Virus record (IMG/VR): IMGVR_UViG_3300046507_000526
Span: 70,193 to 134,192 of that record
Origin: a virus
Lineage: Duplodnaviria > Heunggongvirae > Uroviricota > Caudoviricetes
DNA: 64,000 nt
Direction: 5' to 3' (one strand)
Shown one piece after another: positions 5,473-43,850 of the stretch. The notes below the pieces were generated by a model, which was not told where the DNA came from, did no database searches, and saw nothing but the letters and a program-made list of their open reading frames with translations. The stretch's first letter is position 1, and each line of letters opens with the position of its first letter. The position numbers and the translations under genes are program-made.

Positions 5473-5484
5473 TTGGTAAATGAA

Positions 5485-13773: not shown

Positions 13774-13782
13774 GGACTTACC

Positions 13783-16203
13783 ATGAAAATTCAAACCAAG
13801 CTTCACACCGTGTTTATCCTGGTTGGCCCTTCTATGTGCGGCAAGTCGACGTTTTCCCTTGAGTTGCAGCACGCTCTAGGAGAACAGATGCGTAAAGCTG
13901 GACTGGGCGGTTCGTGTTCGATTCCCGTCATCAGTTCCGATGCGGAGCGAGAAAGTCTTTACGGCTACAAGAATCTCCATCGTTACGCACCTTTGATGAT
14001 GGAAGCCTCAGCTTCGGCCTTCGAAGTCCTTATGGCCAGGTACAAGGCAGCGATCTCGTTCCCGATCAATAGCGAATTCGTGATCATCGACACGACTGGC
14101 ATGAACGATACGTTCCGCAAGCAAATTCGTGAACTGGCCGAGGAAAAGGAATATCGTACTGAGTTGGTTACTTTCGAGTACTCCAACTATCAGTATTGGT
14201 CGGAATCCAATGCAGAAGAAAAGGTCATCGTCGAGTCGAGTGCCAAGCGATTCAAGCAGAGCGTCCTCCCGAATCTGGGGCGTAAAGATCACGACGGCTG
14301 TATCCGTGTGCGTGAACGTGACAAGAATTTCTGGCGTGACCTCGAAGTTGAGATTGAAGATCTGCAAAAGTACGCAGCTACTCAGTTGTATCTCAATAAG
14401 GACATGCAGATCAATATCATCGGAGATGTGCACGAACATGTCGAAGCGCTGGAAGAACTTCTTGTCAAACTCCCTGCTGGGAGCATCAACGTTATGGTGG
14501 GAGATTACATTGATAAGGGCAATGACACAGCAAATGCCATTGCTGCAGCTCGTAGGTTCCACGCTTCTGGTGGTATTATTGTTCACGGCAATCACGAGTC
14601 GTATGCTGTGAAACGTATCAAGGGAGAAATTAAGAACCCTGATCTGGAAATGGAAGCAAAGTACATGACTTCACTCAATGTACTGCTGAAAGATCCTGCG
14701 CTTGCAGCTGAGCTTGTAGATCTCTTCGACCTTTGTTCTGTACCTTTCCTCAAAATTCACGGTCATAACGTTCGTACCCTTTACGTTACCCATGCTCCTT
14801 GCGAGCAGAAATATCTGGGTAAGATGAGCCCTGCAGCACTTAAGGCTCAACGTAACCTGTACGGGGATCGTAAAGAAGACTACCGGAAGGCATATGACTT
14901 TATCTTTAAAGAAGCAGTTGGCAATTTCCCTTTGCATGTGTTTGGTCATGTTGCCCATAATGCTTCAAAGCTCGAATATCGGAACAAGATTTTTATCGAT
15001 ACCGGTGCTGTGTATGGCAATGCTCTTTCTGCTTTGTGCTATAAGGGAAACCGCTATTGGATCGAGTCTGTTAAGGCGACTGAAAAAGTAACGGTACATA
15101 AGGAACTTCAAAACTTCCTTACGCAACCTATTGCAGCTCCGGAAAAGCCCTTCAGCATCTACGACTATAAGTTGTCGCCTGATGATATGAAGTTCTTGAA
15201 GCGTACAATCGCAAACCGCGTTCAGTACATTTCCGGAACTATGGCACCAGCTCCGTCGACCAGCACTGAGATTGAAAGTCTGAAGGCTGGACTGGACTAT
15301 TTCCGTAACAAAGGCACGACGAAGGTAATTCTGGAACCGAAGTACATGGGTTCACGTTGCCAGATGTATCTGTTCCGTGGCCAACGCGAGAAATGCTTCC
15401 TGGTTTCCCGCAATGGTTTCAAGATTCGAATGAATGAAAAGCTTGACGCAATGCTTGACGCCGAGCTTGCGAAGTATGAAGCTTTGAGTCTTGATTTCTG
15501 GAATGAGTCAATGATTCTAGACGGCGAGCTTCTTCCTTGGACTACTCTCGGCGCTTCCTTGGTCGAAGAGCAATTCAAGGCGTATGAAGAGCTTGTACGT
15601 TACGAACTGGAAACTCTTGCAGGGGATGCGGAATTTGTGAAGCTTAACTTCAAGCAAAAGCCTGATTTATTAGCACGTCTGGCCGATCTGGCAACGTTCA
15701 AGAAAACCCTTGCAATCTACGGAGCAGAAGCCGATCCTTTCTATAAACCTTTTGCAATTCTGAAAATTGATAGCGAGGCCATGGGGAATAAATTTGAGGT
15801 TGCAGATTCGTTCGATACTCTCAACGAAGACGAATGTCGTGTCCTGCGTTTGGATAACGAATTCACTGACCAAACAGCGCAAGAATTCTTCGAAGCGTTG
15901 ACCGTAGATCGTAAAATGGAAGGCGTCGTCATTAAGCCTCTCGATGGTCCGGAAGATGTAGCACCGTACATGAAGGTTCGGAATGAGAATTATCTGACAC
16001 TTGTGTATGGCTACGACTATAAGAACCGTTACGAAGCTCTTTGCCGCCAGAAGAAGGTTGGTGGTAAACTACGTGTCTCCATTAAGGAGCATGATCTCGC
16101 AATGGCAATGCTTAATGTAGACAACGGCCCTGCCATGACTGAATTGATTGTGAAAATGATCTCACAACTCAATGAAGAAAAGGCTTTGGATCCTCGTCTG
16201 TAA
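13783..16203 (+). CDS. pnkp: bacterial-type polynucleotide kinase-phosphatase with C-terminal ligase-like adenylyltransferase domain (Pnkp)
   Basis: P-loop kinase VGPSMCGKST; calcineurin-like phosphoesterase GDVHEH...GDYIDKG...GNHES; C-terminal nucleotidyltransferase motif EPKYMGSRCQ; three-domain order matches bacterial Pnkp. Confidence 0.85.
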   Translation: MKIQTKLHTVFILVGPSMCGKSTFSLELQHALGEQMRKAGLGGSCSIPVISSDAERESLYGYKNLHRYAPLMMEASASAFEVLMARYKAAISFPINSEFVIIDTTGMNDTFRKQIRELAEEKEYRTELVTFEYSNYQYWSESNAEEKVIVESSAKRFKQSVLPNLGRKDHDGCIRVRERDKNFWRDLEVEIEDLQKYAATQLYLNKDMQINIIGDVHEHVEALEELLVKLPAGSINVMVGDYIDKGNDTANAIAAARRFHASGGIIVHGNHESYAVKRIKGEIKNPDLEMEAKYMTSLNVLLKDPALAAELVDLFDLCSVPFLKIHGHNVRTLYVTHAPCEQKYLGKMSPAALKAQRNLYGDRKEDYRKAYDFIFKEAVGNFPLHVFGHVAHNASKLEYRNKIFIDTGAVYGNALSALCYKGNRYWIESVKATEKVTVHKELQNFLTQPIAAPEKPFSIYDYKLSPDDMKFLKRTIANRVQYISGTMAPAPSTSTEIESLKAGLDYFRNKGTTKVILEPKYMGSRCQMYLFRGQREKCFLVSRNGFKIRMNEKLDAMLDAELAKYEALSLDFWNESMILDGELLPWTTLGASLVEEQFKAYEELVRYELETLAGDAEFVKLNFKQKPDLLARLADLATFKKTLAIYGAEADPFYKPFAILKIDSEAMGNKFEVADSFDTLNEDECRVLRLDNEFTDQTAQEFFEALTVDRKMEGVVIKPLDGPEDVAPYMKVRNENYLTLVYGYDYKNRYEALCRQKKVGGKLRVSIKEHDLAMAMLNVDNGPAMTELIVKMISQLNEEKALDPRL

Positions 16204-22378: not shown

Positions 22379-22463
22379 GGCCCCGTGGTGAAATAGGCAG
22401 ACACAGCAGACTTAAAATCTGCCGCCGTTAGGCGTACCGGTTCAAGTCCGGTCGGGGCTACCA
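22379..22463 (+). tRNA. tRNA-Leu(UAA), type II, CCA encoded
   Basis: acceptor GGCCCCG/CGGGGCT, anticodon loop CTTAAAA, long variable arm, T-loop TTCAAGT. Confidence 0.8.
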
Positions 22464-22489
22464 CTAAACATAATTCTTTTAGGCTTGTC

Positions 22490-22855
22490 ATGGCACTTAG
22501 CAAACAACAAGTATTCGACAAGGTTGCACTGCATCTGTTGAAACAGAACAAGAGAAGTGAAGAAAGCGCAAATGGAGCCTGTCTATATCGAGGCCCTAAC
22601 GGAACAATGTGTGCAGTCGGATGCTTAATTCCAGATGAGCTTTACGATTCTACTGCCGAAGAGACTGCTGCGCATTACGTAATCACTGGAGATGACCGGC
22701 TTAAAGCACTATTTGAGCCTGATGTTATCAGGGACTTCTTTTTGGACAAGCTACAAATGATTCATGATGTAGACCCTATTGAAGGGTGGTACTTCAGCCT
22801 TATTGACTTTGCAGGACAGAGGGGCTTGAATACGGATGTCCTTACAAAGTCATGA
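22490..22855 (+). CDS. hypothetical protein
   Basis: 121 aa ORF. Confidence 0.45.
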   Translation: MALSKQQVFDKVALHLLKQNKRSEESANGACLYRGPNGTMCAVGCLIPDELYDSTAEETAAHYVITGDDRLKALFEPDVIRDFFLDKLQMIHDVDPIEGWYFSLIDFAGQRGLNTDVLTKS

Positions 22856-23000
22856 GACTGTTCAGCGACGATGAGGAATTGAATCCTCCGGATCCAGATT
22901 ATGACCCAATGGCAGGCATTCGCTTTTTTAGAGATGAGATGCCTGCACCTAATTTGCCGTATAAAGACGACGGCGATCCTAATTTTTTTGGACGTGAAAA

Positions 23001-23261
23001 ATGAAAGTTGTTTTTGCCCCTGGTGCTCTTGACGGAGTTCCTGAAGAAGACCGTGAAGAACTCATGAATGAGATTCTCAAGGCAGTTGAGAGCGGTGCTA
23101 TTTTTACTGATTCCGAACCTGTCGATTTCGACAAACTTGCGGAAGAAGACCCTGAAGCTTACGATGCCGTCGTAAGCAACATTGAACGTGAAGTGGTTGA
23201 AGGCGAAGGCCAAACGTTTGAAGTTGATGTCAAATCGTCGGCTGGACAAACGGTGCACTAA
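23001..23261 (+). CDS. hypothetical acidic protein
   Basis: 86 aa ORF. Confidence 0.4.
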   Translation: MKVVFAPGALDGVPEEDREELMNEILKAVESGAIFTDSEPVDFDKLAEEDPEAYDAVVSNIEREVVEGEGQTFEVDVKSSAGQTVH

Positions 23262-23659
23262 TGAAGGTAGCTCCGTCAAACAAACGGGGCGGCAAGAAGG
23301 GAAAATGGGCCTGCTTTAATTGCAGGCTTTGTTTTAAGGAAACTACCGTTTGCCCTTCTTGCAAAGCAGAGATGTACGACGTAGGTCCTAGGTTTAGAGC
23401 CCCGCCTAGAAGAGATGTAAAAGAATGGGCTATCATGAAAGTCTGGTGGATTGATACCCGAGTTGTTAGAGGTAGAAACGGAATTTGGCTAGGACATGGC
23501 CCTAAGCAGAACACGTTGCGAGAACAGAAACAACAATTAGCTAAAGATAGAGAATATTCCCACAGCCATAAGATTCCAAGTAAAAGAAGATGGGAATACA
23601 AAGACCCACTTTATAAACGTTTGAACCAGGAACGTTTCCCATATGTGACATTTAAATAG
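23261..23659 (+). CDS. hypothetical zinc-finger protein
   Basis: CFNCRLC...CPSCK motif; basic. Confidence 0.45.
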   Translation: MKVAPSNKRGGKKGKWACFNCRLCFKETTVCPSCKAEMYDVGPRFRAPPRRDVKEWAIMKVWWIDTRVVRGRNGIWLGHGPKQNTLREQKQQLAKDREYSHSHKIPSKRRWEYKDPLYKRLNQERFPYVTFK

Positions 23660-23671
23660 CGCGGGGTTAAA

Positions 23672-23932
23672 ATGACAGATACTATGAAATACATTATTAT
23701 CGAAGATCACTTCGCCGTAGTATTCCCAGCAGCTGTTTATCACAGCGACGCAGCTAGCATGATCGGTCAAGGGATCGGCTCCAATCATGTCACCGGCGCT
23801 GGATACATCGGCGCTGATGAGCAAGGAAAACTCTACGTGTATGGCCGTTCTGAGGGCTTTAATATGGACGCCAAGCCTGAAGATCTGGAGATCGTGATGG
23901 GAGCGTTGCATAGGCCTTGTAAGCCAATGTGA
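23672..23932 (+). CDS. hypothetical protein
   Basis: 86 aa ORF. Confidence 0.4.
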   Translation: MTDTMKYIIIEDHFAVVFPAAVYHSDAASMIGQGIGSNHVTGAGYIGADEQGKLYVYGRSEGFNMDAKPEDLEIVMGALHRPCKPM

Positions 23933-23940
23933 AATAATTG

Positions 23941-23975
23941 TTGACACATATACGTTTCCGTATTAAAATCATTTT
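23941..23975 (+). promoter_or_regulatory. sigma70-like promoter (TTGACA-N17-TAAAAT) ahead of tRNA cluster
   Basis: TTGACACATATACGTTTCCGTATTAAAAT. Confidence 0.45.
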
Positions 23976-23993
23976 TACCTGTCGGTGCTTTGT

Positions 23994-24067
23994 TCCGGAA
24001 TAGCTCAGTTGGTAGAAGCGCTTTACTGTTAATAAAGAGGTCCTTGGTTCGAGCCCAAGTTTCGGAG
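23994..24067 (+). tRNA. tRNA-Asn(GUU)
   Basis: acceptor TCCGGAA/TTTCGGA, anticodon loop CTGTTAA, T-arm CTTGGTTCGAGCCCAAG. Confidence 0.75.
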
Positions 24068-24100
24068 CACAGCATCGATAGGTTTAAGGAAAATTCTGGA

Positions 24101-24174
24101 GGGGATGTAGCTCCAATTGGTAGAGCAACTGCTTTGCAAGCAGAGGGTTATCGGTTCAAATCCGATCTTCTCCA
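24101..24174 (+). tRNA. tRNA-Ala(UGC)
   Basis: 74 nt; acceptor GGGGATG/CTTCTCC with G3:U70 wobble; anticodon loop TTTGCAA; T-arm ATCGGTTCAAATCCGAT. Confidence 0.75.
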
Positions 24175-24187
24175 GAATTTTCTTTAT

Positions 24188-24274
24188 GGGACTGTGGTGA
24201 AATTGGCTATACACGTCAGCCTTAGAAGCTGATGCCCTTGAGGCGTGTGGGTTCGACTCCCACCAGTCCTACCA
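24188..24274 (+). tRNA. tRNA-Leu(UAG), type II, CCA encoded
   Basis: acceptor GGGACTG/CAGTCCT, anticodon loop CTTAGAA, long variable arm. Confidence 0.8.
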
Positions 24275-24282
24275 CTATCTGT

Positions 24283-24358
24283 TGCGGTGTAGTTCAGTTG
24301 GTAGAACAACGGATTTTGATTCCGTGTGTCACAGGTTCGAGTCCTGTCGCCGTTGCCA
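24283..24358 (+). tRNA. tRNA-Gln(UUG), CCA encoded
   Basis: D-arm GTTCAGTTGGTAGAAC, anticodon stem ACGGA/TCCGT, loop TTTTGAT; U1-U72 mismatch. Confidence 0.7.
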
Positions 24359-24369
24359 GTGTACTTTAC

Positions 24370-24460
24370 GGAAGATTGGCAGAGTCCGGCTTATTGCACT
24401 AGTCTTGAAAACTAGCAGCCTCTTGACGGGGGTTCATCCGTTCAAATCGGATATCTTCCT
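24370..24460 (+). tRNA. tRNA-Ser(UGA), type II
   Basis: acceptor GGAAGAT/ATCTTCC, anticodon stem CTAGT/ACTAG, loop CTTGAAA, long variable arm; flanked by 8-bp leader/trailer pairing GTACTTTA/TAAAGTAC. Confidence 0.8.
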
Positions 24461-24470
24461 AAAGTACATT

Positions 24471-24545
24471 GTCACATTCGACTATCGATTAGGTCAACAC
24501 CCTTTCACGGTGTAGAGATGGGTTTGATTCCCATATGTGACTCCA
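24471..24545 (+). tRNA. tRNA-Glu(UUC), CCA encoded
   Basis: acceptor GTCACAT/ATGTGAC, anticodon stem ACACC/GGTGT, loop CTTTCAC. Confidence 0.8.
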
Positions 24546-24554
24546 TTAACAAAT

Positions 24555-24644
24555 AGTAGCTTGGGGGAGCGGTTTAACCCAGCATCCTGCTAAGATGCCA
24601 ACTCCGCAAGGGGTTCTCAGGTTCAAATCCTGAAGCTACTGCCA
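24555..24644 (+). tRNA. tRNA-Ser(GCU), type II, CCA encoded
   Basis: acceptor AGTAGCT/AGCTACT, anticodon stem GCATC/GATGC, loop CTGCTAA, long variable arm. Confidence 0.75.
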
Positions 24645-24659
24645 CATGAAGGATCCAAC

Positions 24660-24968
24660 GTGTCCAAATACGTTACTCGTACGTTTCCCAAGAAAGTGCT
24701 TCAAGATTTGCTACGGGAAGATATTGAGGATTTTGAAAATCTACCAATCGAAATTGTAGAAGATGAAGTCTATGACAATGGTCGATGGACAGTTCATCAT
24801 AGATTGATTTTTAGTCATGGAAATAAACACTATCAAGTTGACTACCAACGAGGCTCAACTGAGTACCAGGATGAACGTCCGTTTGAATACGATAGTAATG
24901 ATATTGTCTGTATTCTAGTAGAGAAGAAAGAAGTAACAGTGACCAGGTTTATGCCGGTCAACGAATAA
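24660..24968 (+). CDS. hypothetical protein
   Basis: 102 aa ORF inside tRNA region. Confidence 0.45.
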   Translation: MSKYVTRTFPKKVLQDLLREDIEDFENLPIEIVEDEVYDNGRWTVHHRLIFSHGNKHYQVDYQRGSTEYQDERPFEYDSNDIVCILVEKKEVTVTRFMPVNE

Positions 24969-24972
24969 CCAT

Positions 24973-25057
24973 GGGGTTGCGGCAAAGTTGGAGAGTTGCG
25001 GCTGACTGTAAATCAGTTCCTTCGGGTGAGTAGATTCGAATTCTACCAACCTCACCA
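24973..25057 (+). tRNA. tRNA-Tyr(GUA), type II, CCA encoded
   Basis: acceptor GGGGTTG/CAACCTC, anticodon stem GCTGA/TCAGT, loop CTGTAAA, long variable arm. Confidence 0.75.
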
Positions 25058-25071
25058 AACAGAGAAGAATT

Positions 25072-25257
25072 ATGTCTTCTAAAACAACGCAGTACAAGGA
25101 CATGGTCCTATCTACCAACACAGATCTTTTCAAAGCAGTTCAGGACGGTGAAACTGAAAAAGCTGCTCAGATGTACAAAGATCTGAATGACGCCTTCTAT
25201 AAGGCTAACCCTGGGTGGAAGCCCTATCCTTCGAAGGTGAAGCATGACGGATCGTAA
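25072..25257 (+). CDS. hypothetical protein
   Basis: 61 aa ORF. Confidence 0.35.
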   Translation: MSSKTTQYKDMVLSTNTDLFKAVQDGETEKAAQMYKDLNDAFYKANPGWKPYPSKVKHDGS

Positions 25258-25633
25258 GATAGCAGTATTGTTCTCTAATGAGCACTACGACAGATACGAC
25301 AATTATCGTGAAATTATAGAAGCAATAACGGAGTGGACAGTTGTTTCTGAAGAAGAGTTTAAACTGTTAACCCAGTACAGTTACGAAAAAGGATTTCATA
25401 TACTTGAAGTTCCTTTGAATCAAACTGAGTTCATTCGAAATACAGTGACGACTCTTCTTGAAGAAGCCAAGGCTAAAAAAGAAGCGGAAGAAAAACGTAA
25501 GGCTAAACAAAAGGCCGAACGAGAAGCTAACCGCGCCAAACAAGCCGAGAGAGATCGTGCTAATAAGCTTAAGCAACTTGAGAAGTTACAGAAGGAACTA
25601 GGCTTAGCCCCGGAGAGCGACAATGTCACATAA
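25244..25633 (+). CDS. hypothetical protein with Lys/Glu-rich coiled-coil tail
   Basis: 129 aa ORF. Confidence 0.45.
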   Translation: MTDRKIAVLFSNEHYDRYDNYREIIEAITEWTVVSEEEFKLLTQYSYEKGFHILEVPLNQTEFIRNTVTTLLEEAKAKKEAEEKRKAKQKAEREANRAKQAERDRANKLKQLEKLQKELGLAPESDNVT

Positions 25634-26054
25634 ACAAGTAATCGTAATGCGCAAAGATCTCGGAATGCGCAAAGGGAAAATGATTGCTCAAGGTGCGCAT
25701 GCAAGTCTTGCGGCGATTTTGAATGCCTTTTCTGAAGAAGTGAGTACGTACCCGGAAGGGTATTTCCAAAATACGGGACCTTTTCAAAGAATAGAATACA
25801 CATTTACGGATCTTAAAGGTGGCGTTATTCCCTGGCTCACAGGCAACTTCAAAAAAGTGTGTGTATATGTAAATTCGGAAGAAGAACTGCTCGCACTCTA
25901 TGAAAAAGCAAAAGCTTCTGGTATCATTACTTCATTGATTACCGATTCAGGATTGACCGAGTTTAACGGAGTTCCGACCAATACCTGCATCGCGGTTGGT
26001 CCGGATTTTGAAGATAAGATAAATGAAGTGACCGGTGGGTTGCCACTTCTATAG
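25623..26054 (+). CDS. pth2: peptidyl-tRNA hydrolase, Pth2 family
   Basis: VIVMRKDLGMRKGKMIAQGAHAS and ITDSGLTEFNGVPTNTCIAVGPD closely follow Pth2 (PTRH2) motifs. Confidence 0.85.
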   Translation: MSHKQVIVMRKDLGMRKGKMIAQGAHASLAAILNAFSEEVSTYPEGYFQNTGPFQRIEYTFTDLKGGVIPWLTGNFKKVCVYVNSEEELLALYEKAKASGIITSLITDSGLTEFNGVPTNTCIAVGPDFEDKINEVTGGLPLL

Positions 26055-26066
26055 AGGAAATGTATA

Positions 26067-26339
26067 ATGAGTTTTGTTCAAACAGTTGAAGACGAAGTTA
26101 AAAGCATCGTTGCAAAGATTGAAGGTTTTTTCCACAGCAAGACTGCTGAAGAGATCAAGGCGGAGCTAGAAGCAGAAGTCAAGAAGATTCAAGACGCTGC
26201 TGAAGCAAAGATTGAGGCACTACGTGCCAAGATCCAGCCGAAGATTGAAGCTAAGCTTGCCGAAGTTAAGGCCGATGTTGCAGCCGCAGTTTCGACAGCA
26301 GTTGCAGATGGCGTAAAGAGCGCAATCGAAAAGGCTTAA
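26067..26339 (+). CDS. hypothetical coiled-coil protein
   Basis: 90 aa, heptad-like AEAK repeats. Confidence 0.45.
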   Translation: MSFVQTVEDEVKSIVAKIEGFFHSKTAEEIKAELEAEVKKIQDAAEAKIEALRAKIQPKIEAKLAEVKADVAAAVSTAVADGVKSAIEKA

Positions 26340-26348
26340 AGTTTCAAT

Positions 26349-26423
26349 GTCGGGGTGGCCGAGCGATTTAGGCAGAGAGCTGCAACCTCTCCCAGGTGGG
26401 TTTGATTCCTTCCCTCGACTCCA
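26349..26423 (+). tRNA. tRNA-Cys(GCA), CCA encoded
   Basis: acceptor GTCGGGG/CCTCGAC, anticodon stem GAGAG/CTCTC, loop CTGCAAC; T-loop TTTGATT with one T-stem mismatch. Confidence 0.6.
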
Positions 26424-26466
26424 AATAACAGGTCAGCTGCTACCTGAAACAGAAAGCAGCCAAATG

Positions 26467-26541
26467 GGTCTAATCATATAACGGTTATTATGCTGGACTG
26501 TCTATCCGGACACTGGGGTTCAACTCCCCATTAGATCGCCA
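26467..26541 (+). tRNA. tRNA-Asp(GUC), CCA encoded (CCA overlaps next start codon)
   Basis: acceptor GGTCTAA/TTAGATC, anticodon stem CTGGA/TCCGG, loop CTGTCTA, T-arm TGGGGTTCAACTCCCCA. Confidence 0.7.
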
Positions 26542-26810
26542 TGAAACATAAACCGTATTTAGCGTGGATTGTGATGAGTAAAATCACAGATATTGTAAAA
26601 GCCGGAAAACCGGTAAAGTTTGTCAAGTATCAGAAGAATGAACTTTGGTATGTAACGGATTGCGGTTTCGAATTCCCCGTACCAATCTCGGACACAGGCG
26701 ATGCAGCATTTTTACCTGAAGATAAGCCGATGTTGTTTATGCGCTGGATGAATGCGCATATGAAGACGATTGAAAAAGCAAAGCAAGAACAAGAAGTAAG
26801 CATTGATTAA
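26541..26810 (+). CDS. hypothetical protein
   Basis: 89 aa ORF. Confidence 0.4.
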   Translation: MKHKPYLAWIVMSKITDIVKAGKPVKFVKYQKNELWYVTDCGFEFPVPISDTGDAAFLPEDKPMLFMRWMNAHMKTIEKAKQEQEVSID

Positions 26811-26912
26811 AAGAACCTCCTCCGTTAGGTTGCGCAGTGCCCCATACGGATCGCATTCCCTCGGGATGGGAAATTCGTCGACAGCCAGCGAATTAAAACA
26901 ATTGGCCCAAAT

Positions 26913-26990
26913 GCCCGTATAGCTCAGTTGGTAGTAGCACTCGCCTTGTAAGCGAGAGGTCACTGGTTCGAATCCTAGTTACGGGCACCA
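26913..26990 (+). tRNA. tRNA-Thr(UGU), CCA encoded
   Basis: acceptor GCCCGTA/TACGGGC, anticodon stem CTCGC/GCGAG, loop CTTGTAA; T-arm parse slightly irregular. Confidence 0.65.
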
Positions 26991-26996
26991 GTATTT

Positions 26997-27073
26997 CCCC
27001 CAGGTAGCTCAGTTGGTAGAGCGGCATGTTGAAGCCTTGCGCGTCGGAGGTTCGAGTCCTTCTCTGGGGACCA
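26997..27073 (+). tRNA. tRNA-Phe(GAA), CCA encoded
   Basis: acceptor CCCCAGG/TCTGGGG, loop TTGAAGC, T-arm GGAGGTTCGAGTCCTTC. Confidence 0.65.
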
Positions 27074-27120
27074 ATAACAAATAACGACCAAATCGGGGAT
27101 TTCTTTTAAGGATCCAAGTA

Positions 27121-28053
27121 ATGTTTTATGGTGTAAATGGTCATTATGATTATAATCAATCGATTGCTCAGCAAGTAGCTGACGTAAAAATGATGGGTTT
27201 CACGAGTTATCGTGCTACCTATGAAGGTAACGACGCAAGTCTTACTTATCTTAAAAATATCGCTACAGCATTGAAAGGCACGGGTATTACGCTAGTCTGC
27301 TGTATCGATTTAAGCATGTGCGATTCTACGGGTGCATTGTTTACCAGCGAAGCTTTGGCGTATCAAACTGGTTTCAATGAAGGACTACTCGTAGCTCAGG
27401 CGTTGGTTCCGCTTGGTGTTACTATTTTCGAATGCGGTAATGAGCTTGATTCCAAGAACAATATTCGAACTTACGTCGGCGAACAAGGCGGCGTTGCAGT
27501 TGATTTTCAGAACTCAGTATTCCCTGCGCTACGTGGGGTAATGAATGGTTGTATGACGGCTGTTCGTCTGGTTGGCGGCTCTAAGGTAAAATGCGCATCG
27601 AATGGCTTTACGGCAGCATCGATTGCGGTAGCAGATATGCTTTGGGATGGTACTCAACCTGATGGCACTTCTGGCCATATGCCGGTGCGTTGGGATATTA
27701 CCTCCTGGCACAACTATGAAGATTACGGTAATCCCTTTGATGGCACCATGTCGATGGATTATCAGAAACCAAACATTAACCTTTGTGATCACCTGAAGGC
27801 AAAATTTGGTAAACCAATTCTATTCACTGAGTGGAATTCCAAAGCGAGTAACACCGATGCTGAGCGTTCAGCGTGGGCAACCCAGTTTATGACAGGTGCT
27901 CGCAATGCAAAGGATGTTTTTGGCATAATGGGTATTATGGTTTATCAACTCTATTGCGGTGATCCATGGGGCGTGGTAAACTTTGACCTTACAATTAAAC
28001 AATCGTTTGGACAAACAGTTAAGAACTTTATCGCTGCAAATCCTGTAGCGTAA
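27121..28053 (+). CDS. putative glycoside hydrolase (clan GH-A-like TIM barrel)
   Basis: candidate catalytic pair FECGNELD (acid/base NE) and FTEWNSK (nucleophile TE) with spacing typical of GH5-like enzymes; no signal peptide. Confidence 0.45.
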   Translation: MFYGVNGHYDYNQSIAQQVADVKMMGFTSYRATYEGNDASLTYLKNIATALKGTGITLVCCIDLSMCDSTGALFTSEALAYQTGFNEGLLVAQALVPLGVTIFECGNELDSKNNIRTYVGEQGGVAVDFQNSVFPALRGVMNGCMTAVRLVGGSKVKCASNGFTAASIAVADMLWDGTQPDGTSGHMPVRWDITSWHNYEDYGNPFDGTMSMDYQKPNINLCDHLKAKFGKPILFTEWNSKASNTDAERSAWATQFMTGARNAKDVFGIMGIMVYQLYCGDPWGVVNFDLTIKQSFGQTVKNFIAANPVA

Positions 28054-28060
28054 AGTCTGG

Positions 28061-28137
28061 TGCGGGGTAGAGCAGTCCGGTAGCTCAGCAGGCTCATAAC
28101 CTGAAGGTCACGGGTTCAAATCCCGTCCCCGCTACCA
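28061..28137 (+). tRNA. tRNA-Met(CAU), CCA encoded
   Basis: D-arm GAGCAGTCCGGTAGCTC, anticodon loop CTCATAA, T-arm ACGGGTTCAAATCCCGT; U1-U72 mismatch. Confidence 0.65.
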
Positions 28138-28154
28138 AATAAACTTAAAAAGAT

Positions 28155-28331
28155 ATGACAGAAATAACATTTGTTAGAATGACGTACGATCTTGTGCCTA
28201 CTGAATTTGGAAGTGCATATATTCAGATAGGAGAAGCGAATCGATATTACCCAAATAATCCACTTGCAGCTTGGGCCGCTATGAGAATGCTAGCACAAAC
28301 TCTAGGCGTAGAAGTTGAATTTGTAGAATAA
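28155..28331 (+). CDS. hypothetical small protein (58 aa)
   Basis: ATG ORF below track cutoff between tRNA genes. Confidence 0.3.
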   Translation: MTEITFVRMTYDLVPTEFGSAYIQIGEANRYYPNNPLAAWAAMRMLAQTLGVEVEFVE

Positions 28332-28332
28332 C

Positions 28333-28408
28333 GGGACCTTAGCTCAGTTGGTAGAGCGCTTCTCTTACACAGAAGATGTCGGCGGTTCAAACCCGTCAGG
28401 TCCTACCA
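28333..28408 (+). tRNA. tRNA-Val(UAC), CCA encoded
   Basis: acceptor GGGACCT/AGGTCCT, D-arm GCTCAGTTGGTAGAGC, anticodon stem CTTCT/AGAAG, loop CTTACAC. Confidence 0.8.
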
Positions 28409-28409
28409 T

Positions 28410-28498
28410 CGAAACGAAGTACTTAAAGTGACTATGGGTTGGTTAGCCTGATATTTTTCAGGTGTACTTTATAGGTTCAACTCCTATCGTTTCGACCA
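28410..28498 (+). ncRNA. atypical tRNA-like element (89 nt) with CCA
   Basis: acceptor CGAAACG/CGTTTCG plus 6 further bp AAGTAC/GTACTT, canonical T-arm ATAGGTTCAACTCCTAT, ACCA 3' end; internal 45 nt does not fold as standard D/anticodon arms. Confidence 0.4.
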
Positions 28499-28516
28499 AA
28501 CAACAACGAGGTAAGC

Positions 28517-28720
28517 ATGGCAGATAGTAAAGAAATCATCCGCGTATTTCGTAGTTACAATAAAGAGAAAGGTTGGCCGATGGCTCATGAGGCCGCTGAC
28601 CTTATCGAGAAGTTAGAGAAAGAAAACGCAGACTTGAAGGTTGGATTTGAACTTGTCTGCAAACAACTAGGCGAAGCTAATCGTAAGCATCTTGCACATC
28701 TAGTTGGGCAATTGAAATAG
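28517..28720 (+). CDS. hypothetical protein
   Basis: 67 aa ORF. Confidence 0.4.
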   Translation: MADSKEIIRVFRSYNKEKGWPMAHEAADLIEKLEKENADLKVGFELVCKQLGEANRKHLAHLVGQLK

Positions 28721-28726
28721 ATTTAC

Positions 28727-28801
28727 CCCTGTGTAGCACAGCGGTAGTGCAACGTCTTGATAAGGCGTAGGTCAGTGGTTCGAATCCACTCGCAGGGACC
28801 A
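28727..28801 (+). tRNA. tRNA-Ile(GAU), CCA encoded
   Basis: acceptor CCCTGTG/CGCAGGG, anticodon stem ACGTC/GGCGT, loop TTGATAA, T-arm CAGTGGTTCGAATCCACT. Confidence 0.75.
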
Positions 28802-28937
28802 AACAAAGCAAAATGAACCACCTAGAAGAAGAAGCTGCCTGGTGTAGAGCACAGCTCAAAGAAACGGTCGGAGACAGGAAGTACAAATGTAGTTGCTGGA
28901 TTTTGCATACAGATGAATGTGAAAGAAGGAACAAAGA

Positions 28938-29201
28938 ATGTTTAATCGATCAGAACGTAGACACCACATCGAACGGTTAAAAGAAGCACGCAAAGGTTAC
29001 TGGGGGTATGGCAATCCTCGGGCTAGAGGTTCAGATAATATGGACGCTAGACAGTTAGGCCAAGTTACTCAACACCCGCAAATGTGTTCCTGCGCTGCGT
29101 GTGGAAATCCTCGCAGACACAAGTGGTTTAAAGGCGAGTGTTTGACTCTTCAGGAACGTTCACAATTAGAAGCTCTGAAAACTTACGAGTTTGAAGAGTA
29201 A
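28938..29201 (+). CDS. hypothetical protein
   Basis: 87 aa ORF with CSCAACGNPRRH. Confidence 0.4.
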   Translation: MFNRSERRHHIERLKEARKGYWGYGNPRARGSDNMDARQLGQVTQHPQMCSCAACGNPRRHKWFKGECLTLQERSQLEALKTYEFEE

Positions 29202-29209
29202 ACATCAAC

Positions 29210-29287
29210 CTCTCGTTCGCCTAGCCTGGTATGGCACCTGATTTGGGATCAGGCATAACGCAGGTTCAAATCCTGCACGAGAGACCA
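29210..29287 (+). tRNA. tRNA-Pro(UGG), CCA encoded
   Basis: acceptor CTCTCGT/ACGAGAG, anticodon stem CCTGA/TCAGG, loop TTTGGGA. Confidence 0.75.
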
Positions 29288-29295
29288 TTTTATAA

Positions 29296-29694
29296 ATGTC
29301 CGCACTGAGAAAATGTAAAAAATGCGGCGAGCAATACCCAGAAGAACAGTACCCATTAGCAGGACGTAAAATTAAGCTTAGTTTTAGTGGAACGCCTTAT
29401 AGGAGACATATTTGTTCAAAGTGTTACTACTCGTCAAAAAATGAAGCCAGATTAGCAAAGCTTCAATTATGGAATGAATACAAAAAGACTCTTAGATGTA
29501 ATCGGTGTGGACTTGCTGATCACAGAGTATTAGACTTCCATCATAAAGATCCGTCCCAAAAAGAATTCAATCTAAGTATTATGGCAGGTCGTAATCCTAA
29601 TTTTCAAACTCTATTAGACGAAGTGTCAAAGTGTGAAGTGCTTTGTTCAAATTGTCATCGTATTCATCACTACGAAGAAAGGTTCAATAAGTGA
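29296..29694 (+). CDS. HNH homing endonuclease
   Basis: CGLADHRVLDFHHKD...LCSNCHRIHH HNH motif; inserted within tRNA region. Confidence 0.8.
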   Translation: MSALRKCKKCGEQYPEEQYPLAGRKIKLSFSGTPYRRHICSKCYYSSKNEARLAKLQLWNEYKKTLRCNRCGLADHRVLDFHHKDPSQKEFNLSIMAGRNPNFQTLLDEVSKCEVLCSNCHRIHHYEERFNK

Positions 29695-29957
29695 CAACTG
29701 TAGCAGATATCAAGCGTGTTCTTGAGCGGGTATGTAGCGATTACGTAGCCGACACAGTTGGATTCATCGATGGCCTCAATGCCAGGAACACCATGACTCT
29801 TGAAGGTTTTGACCTCGATAGTCTGGATCTTCTGGAAATGGCAATGTCTATTGAAGATGAATTCGATGTAGATTTAGATGACTACAAACTGCAGAAGATT
29901 TCGAATGAAACTCTTCTCCAGGATCTTCCTGAACTTCTCTATAAAGCTATCTTTTAA
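29691..29957 (+). CDS. acyl carrier protein-like small acidic protein (GTG start)
   Basis: LDSLDLLEMAMSIEDEFDVDL resembles ACP DSLD...EEEF phosphopantetheine-attachment helix. Confidence 0.45.
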   Translation: MTTVADIKRVLERVCSDYVADTVGFIDGLNARNTMTLEGFDLDSLDLLEMAMSIEDEFDVDLDDYKLQKISNETLLQDLPELLYKAIF

Positions 29958-29966
29958 TGTTTAACG

Positions 29967-30398
29967 ATGCTTACTTTCACAACTGGCATATATGTAACTC
30001 AATGGAGACCATACATGTCACGCACTTACCGCCGTCAGAAAGGGTACATTCCGAACTACGTTAAGGAAGCTGCGCTTCCGATAGAGCCGCACAAATGCAT
30101 TGGCTACGATACGGAATGCTTCCGTTTCAGCCGATTCAAATTCTATCGCTGCATGGACTACCGAGACGGGCAATGGTTTGATTACAACGCCGTGTCTTTG
30201 GCCCAGCATAACGCCCGTTGGTTCGGAGATCACGGCTACGCCTGGCGTCGTACTTACGGCAAGGACACGACAAAGTTCACCCGTAACCACACGCAAGTGA
30301 AGTACCGAGCCGAAGCCCGTATGGAACTTAAGCGTTTCGAGAAGAACCCTGACTACGAAGTACAAATTCCCCGCAAGAATCTCTTGCCGTGGGACTAA
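29967..30398 (+). CDS. hypothetical basic protein
   Basis: 143 aa ORF. Confidence 0.45.
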   Translation: MLTFTTGIYVTQWRPYMSRTYRRQKGYIPNYVKEAALPIEPHKCIGYDTECFRFSRFKFYRCMDYRDGQWFDYNAVSLAQHNARWFGDHGYAWRRTYGKDTTKFTRNHTQVKYRAEARMELKRFEKNPDYEVQIPRKNLLPWD

Positions 30399-30404
30399 AC
30401 AAAC

Positions 30405-30428
30405 GCCCAGCTTCGGCTGGGTTTTTTT
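30405..30428 (+). terminator. rho-independent terminator
   Basis: CCCAGCTTCGGCTGGG hairpin plus T8. Confidence 0.65.
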
Positions 30429-30441
30429 ATTTGGAAGAAAC

Positions 30442-30615
30442 ATGGAAGTAATTGTAAAACTAACTGCTGATGAAATCAAAACGGCAGTTACCCGGTATAT
30501 CGCAACTCTAAGTATGAACCTGGATGTTAAAGAAGTAACATTTGACTCTCAAGGTAATGCAGTGGCCAAATGTGAAAAAGCTAAAGCTCCCAGTTTCAGC
30601 TATCAGGATCGTTAA
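30442..30615 (+). CDS. hypothetical small protein (57 aa)
   Basis: ATG ORF below cutoff. Confidence 0.3.
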   Translation: MEVIVKLTADEIKTAVTRYIATLSMNLDVKEVTFDSQGNAVAKCEKAKAPSFSYQDR

Positions 30616-30629
30616 TTCGATACGTAACT

Positions 30630-30638
30630 TGGTATAAG
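30630..30638 (+). promoter_or_regulatory. TGGTATAAG promoter motif
   Basis: conserved box. Confidence 0.4.
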
Positions 30639-30840
30639 AGTATTGGTAATAGCAATATTTTTATAGGAGTCTAGTATGTTTGCTCATCCGTATCTTTGGA
30701 TTACAGGTATTACAGTAGCTCTGATTGTATGGGCAAAGGTGGGTCCATGAGTTGGCCAGAAGCTTTCGTAGCCGCAGTCGTTGCAATTTGTCTGGCGTAT
30801 GTATTGACACACTGATTGTATACTTTTAAACTATCCGTAT

Positions 30841-30916
30841 GGGAACATAGCTCAATTGGCAGAGTAGCGGTCTTCAAAACCGTTGGTTTCGGGTTCGAGT
30901 CCCGATGTTCTCACCA
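30841..30916 (+). tRNA. tRNA with anticodon UCA (UGA reader; opal-suppressor / tRNA-Trp-like), CCA encoded
   Basis: canonical 76-nt cloverleaf: acceptor GGGAACA/TGTTCTC, D-arm GCTCAATTGGCAGAGT, anticodon stem GCGGT/ACCGT, loop CTTCAAA, T-arm TCGGGTTCGAGTCCCGA; resembles tRNA-Trp with C34 to U. Confidence 0.75.
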
Positions 30917-31040
30917 TTAACTAAGGAGTTACAAATGAAAAAGCAAAAACTATACGAGTTGTGAGTCATTGAGCCTCCGTAAGACATTCCTTACTTAAAA
31001 GAACCGTTGTATCTATATTTTTTACTTAAGGAAATTAATC

Positions 31041-31352
31041 ATGTCTTACATTTATTCAATCATTCGCAAAGATATCCCCCTCGCAGATCAAATTGTTCAG
31101 ACTGCGCATTCAGCTTTCCATGCTGGAAACGAAACCAAAGATTTGGATGGCAACGTGCCCTCCTTGATCTTGTTGGAAATTACCGACAAAGAATCTCTTC
31201 TGGCTTTGTCAAAGAAACTGTTTGACGCCCATATCCTGTATCACATGTTTTATGAGCCCGACGATGATTTTGGGTATACCTCGCTAACGACTCAGCCTCT
31301 AAACGAGGACCAACGCAAGCTCTTTAGCAATCTCCGTCTGTGGAGGCCGTAA
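31041..31352 (+). CDS. divergent Pth2-like paralog (putative peptidyl-tRNA hydrolase fold)
   Basis: IIRKDIPLADQIVQTAHSA and LILLEITDKESLLALSKK parallel the Pth2 motifs of ORF 25623. Confidence 0.45.
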   Translation: MSYIYSIIRKDIPLADQIVQTAHSAFHAGNETKDLDGNVPSLILLEITDKESLLALSKKLFDAHILYHMFYEPDDDFGYTSLTTQPLNEDQRKLFSNLRLWRP

Positions 31353-31582
31353 TGAGCGACAAGATCCTGATTTTTTATAATAAGGCGCATAATGCTGATT
31401 CCTCGATACCGCCGTGGGTCTGTCAATCTAAAGGTCAGACGCACAATGTCAATCACGTTACAATCGGAAGTGGTATTGGCTTCTCAACCAAGGAGAGACC
31501 CGACCACGCTAGTACCAAAGCGTGTCTCGTTGTCAAAGGTACGCTAACGATCAAAGACGGCGAAGCCAATATTACCCCGTAG
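31340..31582 (+). CDS. hypothetical protein
   Basis: 80 aa ORF. Confidence 0.4.
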   Translation: MEAVMSDKILIFYNKAHNADSSIPPWVCQSKGQTHNVNHVTIGSGIGFSTKERPDHASTKACLVVKGTLTIKDGEANITP

Positions 31583-31585
31583 TCT

Positions 31586-31594
31586 TGGTATAAG
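31586..31594 (+). promoter_or_regulatory. TGGTATAAG promoter motif
   Basis: conserved box. Confidence 0.4.
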
Positions 31595-31620
31595 AGAATT
31601 GTGAAAGAACATTTCTTTTA

Positions 31621-31688
31621 TAAACAATAGCTCAATCGGTAGAGCACACATCCATGTGAAGCTGGGGGTTCGAGTCCCCCTTGTTTTA
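31621..31688 (+). ncRNA. short tRNA-like gene (68 nt) with truncated anticodon arm; possible tRNA pseudogene or minimal tRNA
   Basis: acceptor TAAACAA/TTGTTTT (U1-U72 mismatch), D-arm GCTCAATCGGTAGAGC, T-arm GGGGGTTCGAGTCCCCC, but only 12 nt (CACATCCATGTG) where the 17-nt anticodon arm should be. Confidence 0.35.
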
Positions 31689-31691
31689 GTT

Positions 31692-31768
31692 GGGCCATTA
31701 GCTCAGTTGGTAAGAGCAGCGAACTCATAATTCGTTGGTCGCTGGTTCAAGTCCAGCATGGCCCACCA
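31692..31768 (+). tRNA. tRNA-Met or Ile2 (CAU), CCA encoded
   Basis: acceptor GGGCCAT/ATGGCCC, anticodon stem GCGAA/TTCGT, loop CTCATAA. Confidence 0.75.
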
Positions 31769-31780
31769 GCATTCCTCAAG

Positions 31781-31810
31781 CCCCTCTGAAGTTTAGAGGG
31801 GTTTTCTTTT
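31781..31810 (+). terminator. rho-independent terminator
   Basis: CCCCTCTGAAGTTTAGAGGGG hairpin plus T-run. Confidence 0.65.
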
Positions 31811-37353: not shown

Positions 37354-37699
37354 AGCTAACGGAGTTATTCTTCGATACGCTTTGCTTAAGACTGTGAACC
37401 GCCTGACTTTCGATATTATCGAACAGGCGGAATTCACACGGTATAGAGGTGAGGACGATGGTCCTTACTTCAAGTTTGTCGCATCAAATGGCTATGAGGT
37501 GTATTCCCGTAGCCGTATGGACATTCAGACGGAACGTCTTTGGCTTCTGGGAGCTAAAGAGCAGGACCGCTCTGGAAGCATGGTATTTTCCTCGAATGAT
37601 AAAAGAGATAAAGCTTATTCTGAATTCAAGACTGCCTTGAACGAATGGGCAGAAACGAATTTTGGAGTTGCACAAGATGTCAATGACGCTCGATCCTAA
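37328..37699 (+). CDS. hypothetical protein
   Basis: 123 aa ORF. Confidence 0.45.
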
Positions 37700-38339
37700 A
37701 GATATCCGCCTGGACTCGTTTGGTCATCAGCATGGTGGTCAAAGAGTAGGTATGGATACAGGTGTTAGGGCTACCCACCTACCTAGTGGGATTTCAACTG
37801 AATGTAACGATGACCGCAGCCAGCATCGTAATAAAGAAAAAGCCTTAAAAGAATTGGCTGAGTTGGTTAATGTTTGGAGCGAAAGTCTAGTTCGGAAGGC
37901 TACTCTTTTTGAAGTTTTGGATTACGGTTGGGCCTGCGGGTTTGATATTAAGCAAACTCTAGATGATTGTAAAGATGCCGGATACGAGGTACCAGAGGGA
38001 TTTGTAAAACGATATTGGACTGGCTGGGACCAGCAAGCCGAAAAAGACCTGCAACACAGCGATGATGTAGCAGTCGACAAGTTCGCAGCGATGATGAAAG
38101 TGAAGCTTGCCAAGTCTCGTGAGAAGGGTCGTGGTGGCTGGGACGATCCGGAACAATGCAGCGTTGAATTCTTGGCCAAGCTTCTAGTCGAGCATGTGGC
38201 TAAAGGGGATCCCGTGGACGTTGCAAATCTAGCTATGATGTTGACACTGAGAGAAGCTACCTCTGAATCGCTTAAAAACGCATTTGCCGATGAAGCTATG
38301 AAGATGATGGAGCGAGAAGGCTGGTCTTCAGGTGGCTAA
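37677..38339 (+). CDS. GGQ-motif peptidyl-tRNA hydrolase domain protein (ArfB/ICT1/RF-1 domain-like) with extra C-terminal domain
   Basis: [45 protein letters not shown] matches release-factor GGQ catalytic domain; no codon-recognition domains. Confidence 0.75.
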
Positions 38340-38522: not shown

Positions 38523-38933
38523 ATGAATCCTGAGATCAAAGCCAAATGGGTAGCCGCTCTTCGTAGTGAAGAATACAAGCAAGGTAAGAAGGTTCTGAAT
38601 AACGGGGTTGGAAATTTCTGCTGCCTCGGCGTTCTTTGTGATTTATACGCAAAGGAAAATTCCGTGCAGTGGACGGATGTTTTAGGAGGCCACGAAGAAG
38701 AGACGCTTCAGGAATTTCTAGGAAACATAGCTGTACTTCCTGATGAGGTACAGAACTGGGCAGGTCTTTCAGGAAAAAACCCGTACGTTAAACATAATCG
38801 GAATCTGAATGAAGTGAACCAAGAGATCTATAAATTTGGACCTCTTGAGAAAGAGGAGAACCTGGTCACTCTTAACGACAGTGGGAAGTTCACCTTTAAC
38901 GATATTGCAGATCTTATCGAGGCACAATTATGA
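38523..38933 (+). CDS. paralog 1 of 4 (KWVAALRS...CCLGVLC family, unknown function)
   Basis: shares N-terminal motif and C-terminal F.F..IAD.IE with next three ORFs. Confidence 0.55.
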   Translation: MNPEIKAKWVAALRSEEYKQGKKVLNNGVGNFCCLGVLCDLYAKENSVQWTDVLGGHEEETLQEFLGNIAVLPDEVQNWAGLSGKNPYVKHNRNLNEVNQEIYKFGPLEKEENLVTLNDSGKFTFNDIADLIEAQL

Positions 38934-42840: not shown

Positions 42841-43015
42841 GCAACAAAACGACTGGGCTCACGAGGCCTAGTCTGTTTTGGAAAGGTCTTGAAGGCCTTT
42901 TCAAAGCAGTGTATAATTGCTTCTCTTTGGGGTTAAAGCTTTAAGGTGAAGCAACGGACTTTTAATCCGTAGAATAGGGGTCAGTACCCTGTAGCCCTAC
43001 CAATAATTTCTAATA

Positions 43016-43811: not shown

Positions 43812-43850
43812 CTAAAGTTTCTCCCTGGAGAATTAAATTGGAAACCAATC

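Follow-up and report, generated by a model that had tools for sequence, protein, structure and literature searches.

Why a phage should carry, within one region, two genes resembling the peptidyl-tRNA hydrolase Pth2 and a third with the GGQ motif of release factors is the question raised by a 64,000-nucleotide stretch of an uncultured member of the Caudoviricetes (IMG/VR record IMGVR_UViG_3300046507_000526, positions 70,193 to 134,192; the whole stretch is called the window below). A reading made from the sequence alone had taken open reading frame (ORF) A, starting at 25623, and ORF B, at 31041, to be Pth2 paralogs and ORF C, at 37677, to be an ArfB/ICT1-like protein, and had concluded that the phage encodes three separate peptidyl-tRNA hydrolase activities together with a YqeY-domain protein at 57538. 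All four ORFs are present with the motifs described. On balance, it appears probable from comparison of domains and residues that the window holds three different translation-related proteins, namely a Pth2, a suppressor-linked protein of PTH2 fold without the catalytic Lys, and a module like that of RF2/RF1, and not three redundant hydrolases. Related loci compared with the window are given L-numbers, and P0057 and P0058 denote orthologs of ORF C. The three genes are as follows.

25623-26054, + strand: ORF A, Pth2 peptidyl-tRNA hydrolase, 143 amino acids (PF01981, E=1.4e-30, full length)
31041-31352, + strand: ORF B, PTH2-superfamily protein, 103 amino acids, with Asp16 at the position of the catalytic Lys and a Glu72-Pro73-Asp74 motif
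37677-38339, + strand: ORF C, 220 amino acids, ATG at 37677, RF-1 domain match within the first ~70 residues

A canonical Pth2 among tRNA genes

By domain and residue content, ORF A is a genuine Pth2 of a kind already known in big phages. It matches PF01981 with 106.3 bits (cutoff 23) over model positions 2-115 of 115 and TIGR00283 with 96.6 bits, above the cutoff of 82, while its 105.5 bits against NF003314 fall under a stricter cutoff of 126. The sequence-only reading is borne out here, and domain searches match ORF A to PTH2 and ORF C to RF-1. On alignment to the S. solfataricus Pth2 (1xty), Lys19 and Asp108 of ORF A correspond to Lys18 and Asp86, and both belong to a set of 26 subfamily-invariant residues, defined with 36 relatives, all of which are present in ORF A. 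In matching the full domain and having the conserved Lys and Asp, ORF A agrees with the archaeal/eukaryotic-type Pth2 annotated in jumbo phages (XacN1, Atu_ph07, phiM12, RaK2 ORF188) and mycobacteriophages, and it lies among tRNA genes, as does the Pth2 of other phages; it differs from Pth2 in an extra insertion of ~30 residues after helix 1. Homologs number 4,372 in the protein database and occupy 312 loci in viral contigs, and those of cultured phages are routinely annotated as peptidyl-tRNA hydrolase. The gene is flanked by tRNA-Tyr and tRNA-Cys, an arrangement shared with the relatives L005 and L006, within an island of tRNA genes.

22379-31768, + strand: tRNA gene island, 19 ARAGORN tRNAs and one tRNA-like element (Rfam RF00005)
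42929-42999 and 43740-43812: two further tRNAs outside the island (ARAGORN / Rfam RF00005)

In total, ARAGORN finds 20 tRNAs in the window, to which Rfam adds two tRNA-like elements. The tRNA-Lys(UUU)-like gene at 42929-42999 (Rfam, 45.6 bits) was missed by ARAGORN and has no encoded CCA. There is no tRNA-Trp(CCA) gene in the window, and one is present in L001.

ORF A would be expected to hydrolyse the ester linkage in free peptidyl-tRNA, and probably in N-acyl-aminoacyl-tRNA as well. It would thereby recycle tRNA at times of disturbed translation, acting beside the phage tRNAs and a repair set comprising Pnkp/Hen1, Thg1 and Ro60. Domain and residues are read directly from the gene, and activity and role are predicted from them.

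A Lys-less branch of the PTH2 superfamily

Homology and fold mark ORF B as a genuine, though highly divergent, relative of Pth2, drawn from a separate, large and uncharacterised branch of the PTH2 superfamily. The protein itself gives no match at E<=1 to any Pfam or NCBIfam model, PF01981 included, and its PHROG matches are weak, one of them being to phrog_1866, the PHROG of ORF A (E=1.8e-4). At the level of the family, 29 of 40 members match PF01981 at E<=0.1 (best 6e-8), and the predicted structure of ORF B is a compact, confident fold of the Pth2 alpha/beta type. The family comprises 2,368 clusters at E<=1e-3 and 1,005 at E<=1e-10, clusters being defined at 50% identity. Atu0240 (PDB 2gax), an uncharacterised bacterial protein with a Pth2-like fold, is not matched by the ORF B profile at E<=10, whereas Pth2 structures are.

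An alignment of 35 family sequences is strongly conserved, with the signature RxDIPLADQIVQxaH ... FYEPDDxmGYT. In hhalign comparisons Asp16 of ORF B is paired with Lys19 of ORF A, the presumed catalytic Lys of Pth2 at the N-terminus of helix 1. Among the 40 members this position is occupied by Gln (14), Asp (11), Ala (5) or other residues, and never by Lys. The sequences are only 26-48% identical to ORF B, yet five positions are invariant (Tyr5, Arg9, Gln20, His23 and Glu72) and eight more nearly so, among them Asp11, Gln17, Pro73 and Asp74. In common with Pth2, ORF B has the fold and, in helix 1, the Arg/Asp/Gln/His positions. It is, however, a shorter protein without the Lys, carries Glu-Pro-Asp where Pth2 has the Asp-x-Gly-x-Thr loop, and falls under the Pfam threshold; the Pth2 loop Gly-Leu-Thr-Glu-Phe is likewise absent. 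The description of ORF B as a Pth2 paralog is thus upheld as regards ancestry and fold, and fails as regards the catalytic Lys, missing in all 40 members, and an own Pfam match.

Genes of the ORF A and ORF B types occur together in the window, in L005 and L006, and in RsoM2USA, Xoo-sp13, LR756511 and RaK2. This co-occurrence in several phages argues against redundancy of the two.

Linkage of ORF B to suppressor tRNAs

ORF B starts 124 nucleotides 3' of a tRNA gene with the opal suppressor anticodon UCA. The features around it are listed below.

30405-30422: terminator-like hairpin, 5' of the promoter-like site
30804-30832, + strand: promoter-like site TTGACA-17-TAAACT, just 5' of the suppressor tRNA (consensus scan)
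30841-30916, + strand: suppressor tRNA, anticodon UCA (opal), 76 nucleotides (ARAGORN; Rfam tRNA, 68 bits)
31340-31582, + strand: partner ORF overlapping the end of ORF B, from a family of 76-81 amino acids, no Pfam match
31621-31688, + strand: tRNA-like element (Rfam tRNA, 52 bits; fold)
31692-31768, + strand: tRNA(CAU) (ARAGORN, Rfam), with a strong terminator-like hairpin 3' of it (31778-31804)

With ORF B placed between tRNA(UCA) and the partner ORF, these features follow one another in the order given. The two tRNAs, ORF B, the partner ORF and the tRNA-like element appear to share one unit, of which the hairpin at 31778-31804 is the probable end; the promoter-like site upstream of tRNA(UCA) is suggestive. 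The partner ORF is found directly 3' of ORF B in L001 and L004-L006 as well, with 59-89% identity. ARAGORN labels the gene at 30841-30916 'tRNA-SeC', an assignment that was rejected: the gene encodes a tRNA of ordinary type I, 76 nucleotides in length and lacking a long variable arm. The tRNA-like element retains D and T arms, but the anticodon arm is replaced by a 4-bp stem with a 4-nucleotide loop and there is no CCA; possible readings are a pseudo-tRNA, an element for processing, or a decoy. In L004, L023 and L024 the corresponding position is occupied by aberrant tRNAs for which ARAGORN gives a '2-nt anticodon'.

The arrangement of suppressor tRNA and ORF B recurs in four relatives, in which the anticodon is UCA or CUA. 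It also recurs, with varying spacing, in distant phage lineages. A CUA tRNA lies 438 nucleotides upstream of the ORF B homolog in Acinetobacter phage ME3, 1 kb downstream of it in Salmonella phage Arash and 2.8 kb from it in GAP32, and the suppressors of these three phages are not homologous to that of the window. The tRNA concerned in Arash (L010 4301-4375; OQ632216.1 49176-49247) is given as tRNA-Phe in GenBank and as a CUA amber suppressor by ARAGORN, a possible mis-annotation. In ME3, Arash and GAP32/XbC2 the partner of 76-81 amino acids is replaced by a conserved protein of ~180 amino acids with a YHDxGKP motif, whose gene overlaps or follows the ORF B homolog (L009 4297-4860, ME3_194; L010 3302-3838, Arash gp83c; L011 3315-3455, GAP32_398). 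The ME3 and Arash proteins are 38% identical (E=3e-33), and their Pfam HD match is sub-threshold (E=0.016), so that the HD assignment is tentative.

A controlled survey compared 21 ORF B loci in viral contigs with 80 canonical Pth2 loci under identical ARAGORN analysis, the counts being made on 19 non-redundant ORF B loci and 77 Pth2 loci. A suppressor tRNA was present within 1 kb at 12 of the 19 ORF B loci as against one of the 77 Pth2 loci (Fisher p=1e-9). When only loci with any tRNA within 1 kb were considered, the proportions were 12 of 13 and one of 32 (p=6e-9). Across all 29 non-redundant ORF B loci, a CUA or UCA tRNA lay within 1 kb in 16 and the suppressor was the nearest tRNA in 14. 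The association of the ORF B family is specific to suppressor tRNAs and does not extend to tRNA arrays at large. Genes for tmRNA were also observed near two ORF B homologs (L038 5795-6300 and L033 809-1162), in L038 directly after an amber suppressor tRNA.

No description of this linkage was found in the searchable literature. In the main paper on phage recoding, the modules described consist of suppressor tRNA, synthetase and release factor, and a hydrolase is never mentioned (Borges et al. preprint). Those 'code-change modules' likewise place a suppressor tRNA beside a translation-factor-like protein, but they carry a synthetase and RF1/RF2, whereas the partner in the window is PTH2-like and no recoding is detectable in the available sequence. 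Phage Pth2 genes and phage RF-1-domain genes are already catalogued, and that part of the locus is ordinary. ORF B is the part worth following. Its family is large, with at least 1,000 clusters at 50% identity, is assigned by no Pfam model, and has members usually annotated 'hypothetical'.

With this linkage in view, ORF B may be an altered-specificity hydrolase that acts on the tRNA 3'-ester bond, and its role would be bound up with stop-codon suppression. The suppressor tRNA might be deacylated or gated by it; alternatively, ORF B might remove peptidyl-suppressor-tRNA and further products of readthrough.

ORF C: a release-factor domain 3 module

ORF C consists of two conserved parts.

37677-37886, + strand: N-terminal module, residues 1-70; core of release-factor domain 3, with three strands, GGQ loop (residues 20-22) and helix alpha7
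38052-38291, + strand: C-terminal helical domain, residues 126-205; HxDDxAVDxFA...KGRGGW...EH..KGDPxDxaN; phrog_8298

The closest relatives of the N-terminal module are domain 3 of RF2/RF1 and the mini-RFs of phages (phrog_20323; Acinetobacter phages Henu6 and 133, Vibrio phage nt-1, and the mycobacteriophage proteins annotated 'RF-1 peptide chain release factor'). ORF C has the features of this group, including the three-stranded sheet, the GGQ loop, alpha7, HxPxG and RSQxxN, and stand-alone mini-RFs of 72-76 amino acids superpose on residues 1-70 with a TM-score of ~0.8 normalised to the target. With a family profile, residues 1-70 align with residues 238-311 of E. coli RF2 (E=3e-20), as against E=0.08-0.1 for ArfB structures. 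Full class I release factors are excluded by scores of 54 and 48 bits against TIGR00019 and TIGR00020 (cutoffs 423 and 370). ORF C has neither domains 1, 2 and 4 nor the PxT/SPF decoding motif, and without those domains it therefore cannot recognise a codon. It adds a helical domain of ~90 amino acids, common in phages and prophages, which canonical release factors and most mini-RFs lack. RF-1 modules occur in 315 cultured-phage records, and mini-RFs are found in small phages also.

What ORF C has in common with ArfB (YaeJ)/ICT1 is a GGQ module without decoding domains, and to this extent the earlier description of it as ArfB/ICT1-like was apt. The likeness goes no further, as the module is far closer to RF2, the score against the ArfB model NF006718 is 16.2 bits (cutoff 100), and the last 95 residues fold into a helical bundle whose end is acidic, with no basic C-terminal tail or helix such as ArfB/ICT1 uses to probe the empty mRNA channel. 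PrfH is also distinct, its decoding-like domain being absent from ORF C (39 bits, cutoff 167), and no RtcB gene adjoins ORF C in the window as in the PrfH-RtcB pair, the ligase of the window being Pnkp, 22 kb away. No second GGQ or ArfB-like gene was found in the window. A stand-alone GGQ protein of 124 amino acids (GSGNGGQKKNK), genuinely ArfB-like, is encoded at L004 1557-1931 within a tRNA array and has no counterpart in the window.

The GGQ catalytic motif is, on sequence comparison, dispensable within the family of ORF C. The fusion architecture is found in 13 proteins, only three of which have GGQ, the rest having GGM, GFQ, GYQ or a Trp-containing loop. Syntenic orthologs on the contigs of L005 and L006 have PRGW (P0057) and TGW (P0058), and cultured phages are split, with GGQ in Fludd and prophiT49-2, SNW in Henu6, SAW in Pseudomonas phage 73 and GGM in psageK4e. 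Positions 16-28 of the module, which form the loop, are the most variable (1.5-2.6 bits of entropy), and HxPxG and RSQxxN...AL are invariant or nearly so. Because the ribosome-contacting strands and alpha7 are conserved and the GGQ loop is not, the conserved role is probably a non-catalytic binding at the ribosomal A site and peptidyl-transferase centre; the copy in the window may still hydrolyse. The analogy is with the catalytically dead release-factor-like domains described in Dom34 and MRPS35 (Burroughs & Aravind 2019, PMC6514570). The loss of GGQ from syntenic orthologs is a caution against calling phage 'RF-1 domain' genes peptidyl-tRNA hydrolases.

A variable catalytic loop in ORF C, and an ORF B that lies under Pfam detection, might suggest that both are degenerating or non-functional remnants in a hypervariable tRNA island. 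This is highly improbable, given the five invariant and eight nearly invariant positions of the ORF B family, its spread over at least 1,005 clusters and its confident, compact fold, and given that ORF C has a conserved genomic position and nearly invariant flanking release-factor elements and C-terminal domain.

Stop-codon use and control of suppression

The orthologous suppressor tRNAs of related phages carry either UCA or CUA (window, L001, L004, L005, L006 and L022-L026; coordinates L001 2751-2826, L004 5802-5876, L005 5530-5607 and L006 5793-5868). The suppressors of the window and L001 are identical at 63 of 76 positions, with matching acceptor, D and T arms, the anticodon arm being set apart, and are therefore one orthologous tRNA that differs in its opal or amber anticodon. 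The nucleotide at position 73 is G73, as in tRNA-Trp, in L004, L005 and L006, and A73 in the window and L001.

Such switching of UCA and CUA among related phages would be compatible with a change of code, in which UGA is recoded in late genes beyond the window and, in the manner of the modules of recoded gut phages, the infected cell is switched to readthrough by the suppressor together with ORF B and an RF2-like ORF C that competes with release factor or serves as its decoy. Known recoded phages confine recoding to late genes, none of which lie in the window (Borges et al. preprint), and the ORF C module is closest to RF2, the reader of UGA, with a catalytic loop that is degenerate across the family. 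The stop codons point the other way. TGA ends 12 of the 30 confidently assigned genes of the window, and recoded phages normally deplete the recoded stop genome-wide (Borges et al. preprint). In neither the window nor ~250 kb of related loci was a gene found to be split by the stop codon that the local suppressor reads, the sequence covered being the early/tRNA region only. ORF C, moreover, lies 6 kb from the suppressor, and small phages have mini-RFs too. A code change is consequently regarded as quite improbable, more so than either of the alternatives considered in the next section. ORF statistics under alternative stop-codon sets, as a sign of genome-wide recoding, were uninformative, and among same-frame ORF pairs split by one stop, the stop read by the suppressor was not enriched in the window and 19 related loci.

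Two candidate split genes were rejected. A TAG-split pair in L001 is an HNH endonuclease and a separate gene in another frame, and the pair 3283-3642/3646-4602, considered as a TGA-split gene, has an ordinary junction of stop, 3 nucleotides and ATG. The latter two ORFs (119 and 318 amino acids, of no family) are in the same frame with the junction TGA ACC ATG, and opal readthrough would fuse them.

A tentative proposal, well short of probable but ahead of a code change, is that the ORF B family is a dedicated partner of suppressor tRNAs. As a Lys-less 3'-ester hydrolase of PTH2 fold, it would gate the suppressor until readthrough is wanted, or clear acyl- and peptidyl-tRNA by-products; together with the suppressor, and possibly with the GGQ-degenerate, RF2-like ORF C as a competitor of release factors, it would form an unrecognised 'suppression-control' cassette in phages of standard code. 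Suppressor tRNAs reportedly drive ribosomes to the 3' ends of mRNAs and so raise the demand for rescue. Rescue demand arising from readthrough would tie the suppressor, ORF B, Pth2 and the mini-RF together. A protein partner would also make testable why phages with the standard code carry suppressor tRNAs and tolerate readthrough of their own stops.

Several points limit these readings of the three ORFs. The roles of Lys18 and Asp86 in the S. solfataricus enzyme, which we take to be its catalytic residues, were reportedly identified by mutagenesis. Glu72 of ORF B reaches the position of the catalytic Asp of Pth2 only if the hhalign register, which ends at residue 70, is extended by hand over two residues. 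A suppressor-linked member is present in only four of 11 ORF B protein clusters (50% identity), and the survey statistics ignore shared ancestry. ORF B has no tRNA nearby in L028, L029, L034, L037, RsoM2USA and LR756511, and one family member lies in an ordinary bacterial chromosomal neighbourhood; strict dependence on a linked suppressor is therefore excluded. The promoter-like site at 30804-30832 is a bare consensus match, and such sites are overall no more frequent than by chance. To these may be added the lack of genes split by the suppressor's stop codon, noted above, and the intact GGQ of ORF C in the window.

Phage and RNA-repair context

The window covers that part of a large uncultured phage genome which carries early genes, tRNA genes and RNA-repair genes, and nearly all of its genes are on the + strand. 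Proteins identical to ORF A and ORF C are encoded on a JGI metagenome contig of 134,192 bp. The closest cultured phage by DNA polymerase is Salmonella phage Arash, at 48% identity, and a 16 kb search at the DNA level against cultured phages gave tRNA matches only and no relative. Genes of replication and nucleotide metabolism include a Toprim primase-helicase, PolA, RNase H, both ribonucleotide reductase subunits, ThyX and NT5C. The genes related to RNA repair, with the YqeY-domain gene, are as follows.

5473-6327, + strand: Thg1-like 3'-5' polymerase, tRNA 5'-end repair (PF04446, E=1.3e-27)
12472-13773, + strand: Hen1 (Hen1_N, E=5e-50)
13783-16203, + strand: trifunctional Pnkp kinase/phosphatase/ligase (PNKP_ligase, E=8e-24, with Metallophos and AAA_33)
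57538-57966, + strand: YqeY-domain protein, 142 amino acids (PF09424, E=2.3e-13; phrog_1460, E=1e-26)
58032-58763, + strand: HAD domain, 'Swiss Army Knife' type of RNA repair, immediately 3' of YqeY (PF18143, E=3e-18)
61700-63322, + strand: Ro60 RNA quality-control protein, TROVE and vWA (PF25045, E=6e-56; PF05731, E=5e-39)

Hen1 and Pnkp form an adjacent RNA-repair pair (12472-16203). Pnkp-like proteins were found in only five cultured-phage records, where the matches span the ligase domain alone (~43% of the query). The YqeY-domain protein was correctly recognised by the sequence-only reading, residues 7-136 covering positions 3-141 of the 143 of PF09424 with 50.9 bits (cutoff 27). Rfam, applied to the whole window at gathering thresholds, gave no Y RNA partner for Ro60.

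That the phage anticipates tRNA damage, as the same reading suggested, fits this context very well, because ~22 tRNAs, Pnkp/Hen1, Thg1, the HAD repair domain and Ro60 are all encoded in the window. The idea is, however, already published. PTH2 is distributed across jumbo phages, and a rationale of tRNA damage has been proposed for it there (Iyer et al. 2021, PMC7824862). The further claim, that two Pth2 paralogs and an ArfB-like GGQ factor act as three independent hydrolases, with redundant roles in removing peptidyl-tRNA and clearing stalled ribosomes once host tRNAs have been cleaved, can draw on the presence of all three domains, on the GGQ of the window's ORF C and on this rich repair setting. 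It has a parallel in the unrelated mycobacterial prophage prophiT49-2, which joins such genes in the annotated order tRNA array, RF-1 protein, tRNA-Glu, RtcB, hypothetical gene and Pth2, and a precedent in PrfH-RtcB, which couples a GGQ factor to RNA repair (Burroughs & Aravind 2019, PMC6514570). The ORF B family, however, is Lys-less throughout and tracks suppressor tRNAs, unlike canonical Pth2, and ORF C has neither ArfB-type sequence nor a basic tail and has lost GGQ in its sister-phage orthologs. Three separate peptidyl-tRNA hydrolase activities are accordingly unlikely, and three different translation-related proteins are preferred.

A different purpose for ORF A may also be considered. 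N-acyl-aminoacyl-tRNA is a classic substrate of Pth, and ORF A might serve mainly to counter host GNAT toxins (TacT, AtaT or ItaT type) that fire on infection, by reversing their N-acetylation of aminoacyl-tRNA, and not chiefly to recycle drop-off products. The window does encode other counter-defence genes, namely NAMPT, the NMNAT/Nudix protein and a Lar-like protein. Nothing in the sequence points to such a role, however, which would in any case be compatible with recycling, and the host already has Pth1, so that its probability is put as low as that of three redundant hydrolases.

The NMNAT/Nudix protein (46827-48014) and NAMPT (48610-50001) constitute an NAD+ salvage pair, which presumably resembles the NAD+-reconstitution pathways of phage counter-defence. 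Directly 3' of ORF C, at 38523-40070, are four tandem paralogs of 118-139 amino acids with the motif M-N/K-x-E-I-K-x-K-W...CCLGVLC..., and relatives have, at this position, five to six copies annotated as DUF8296.

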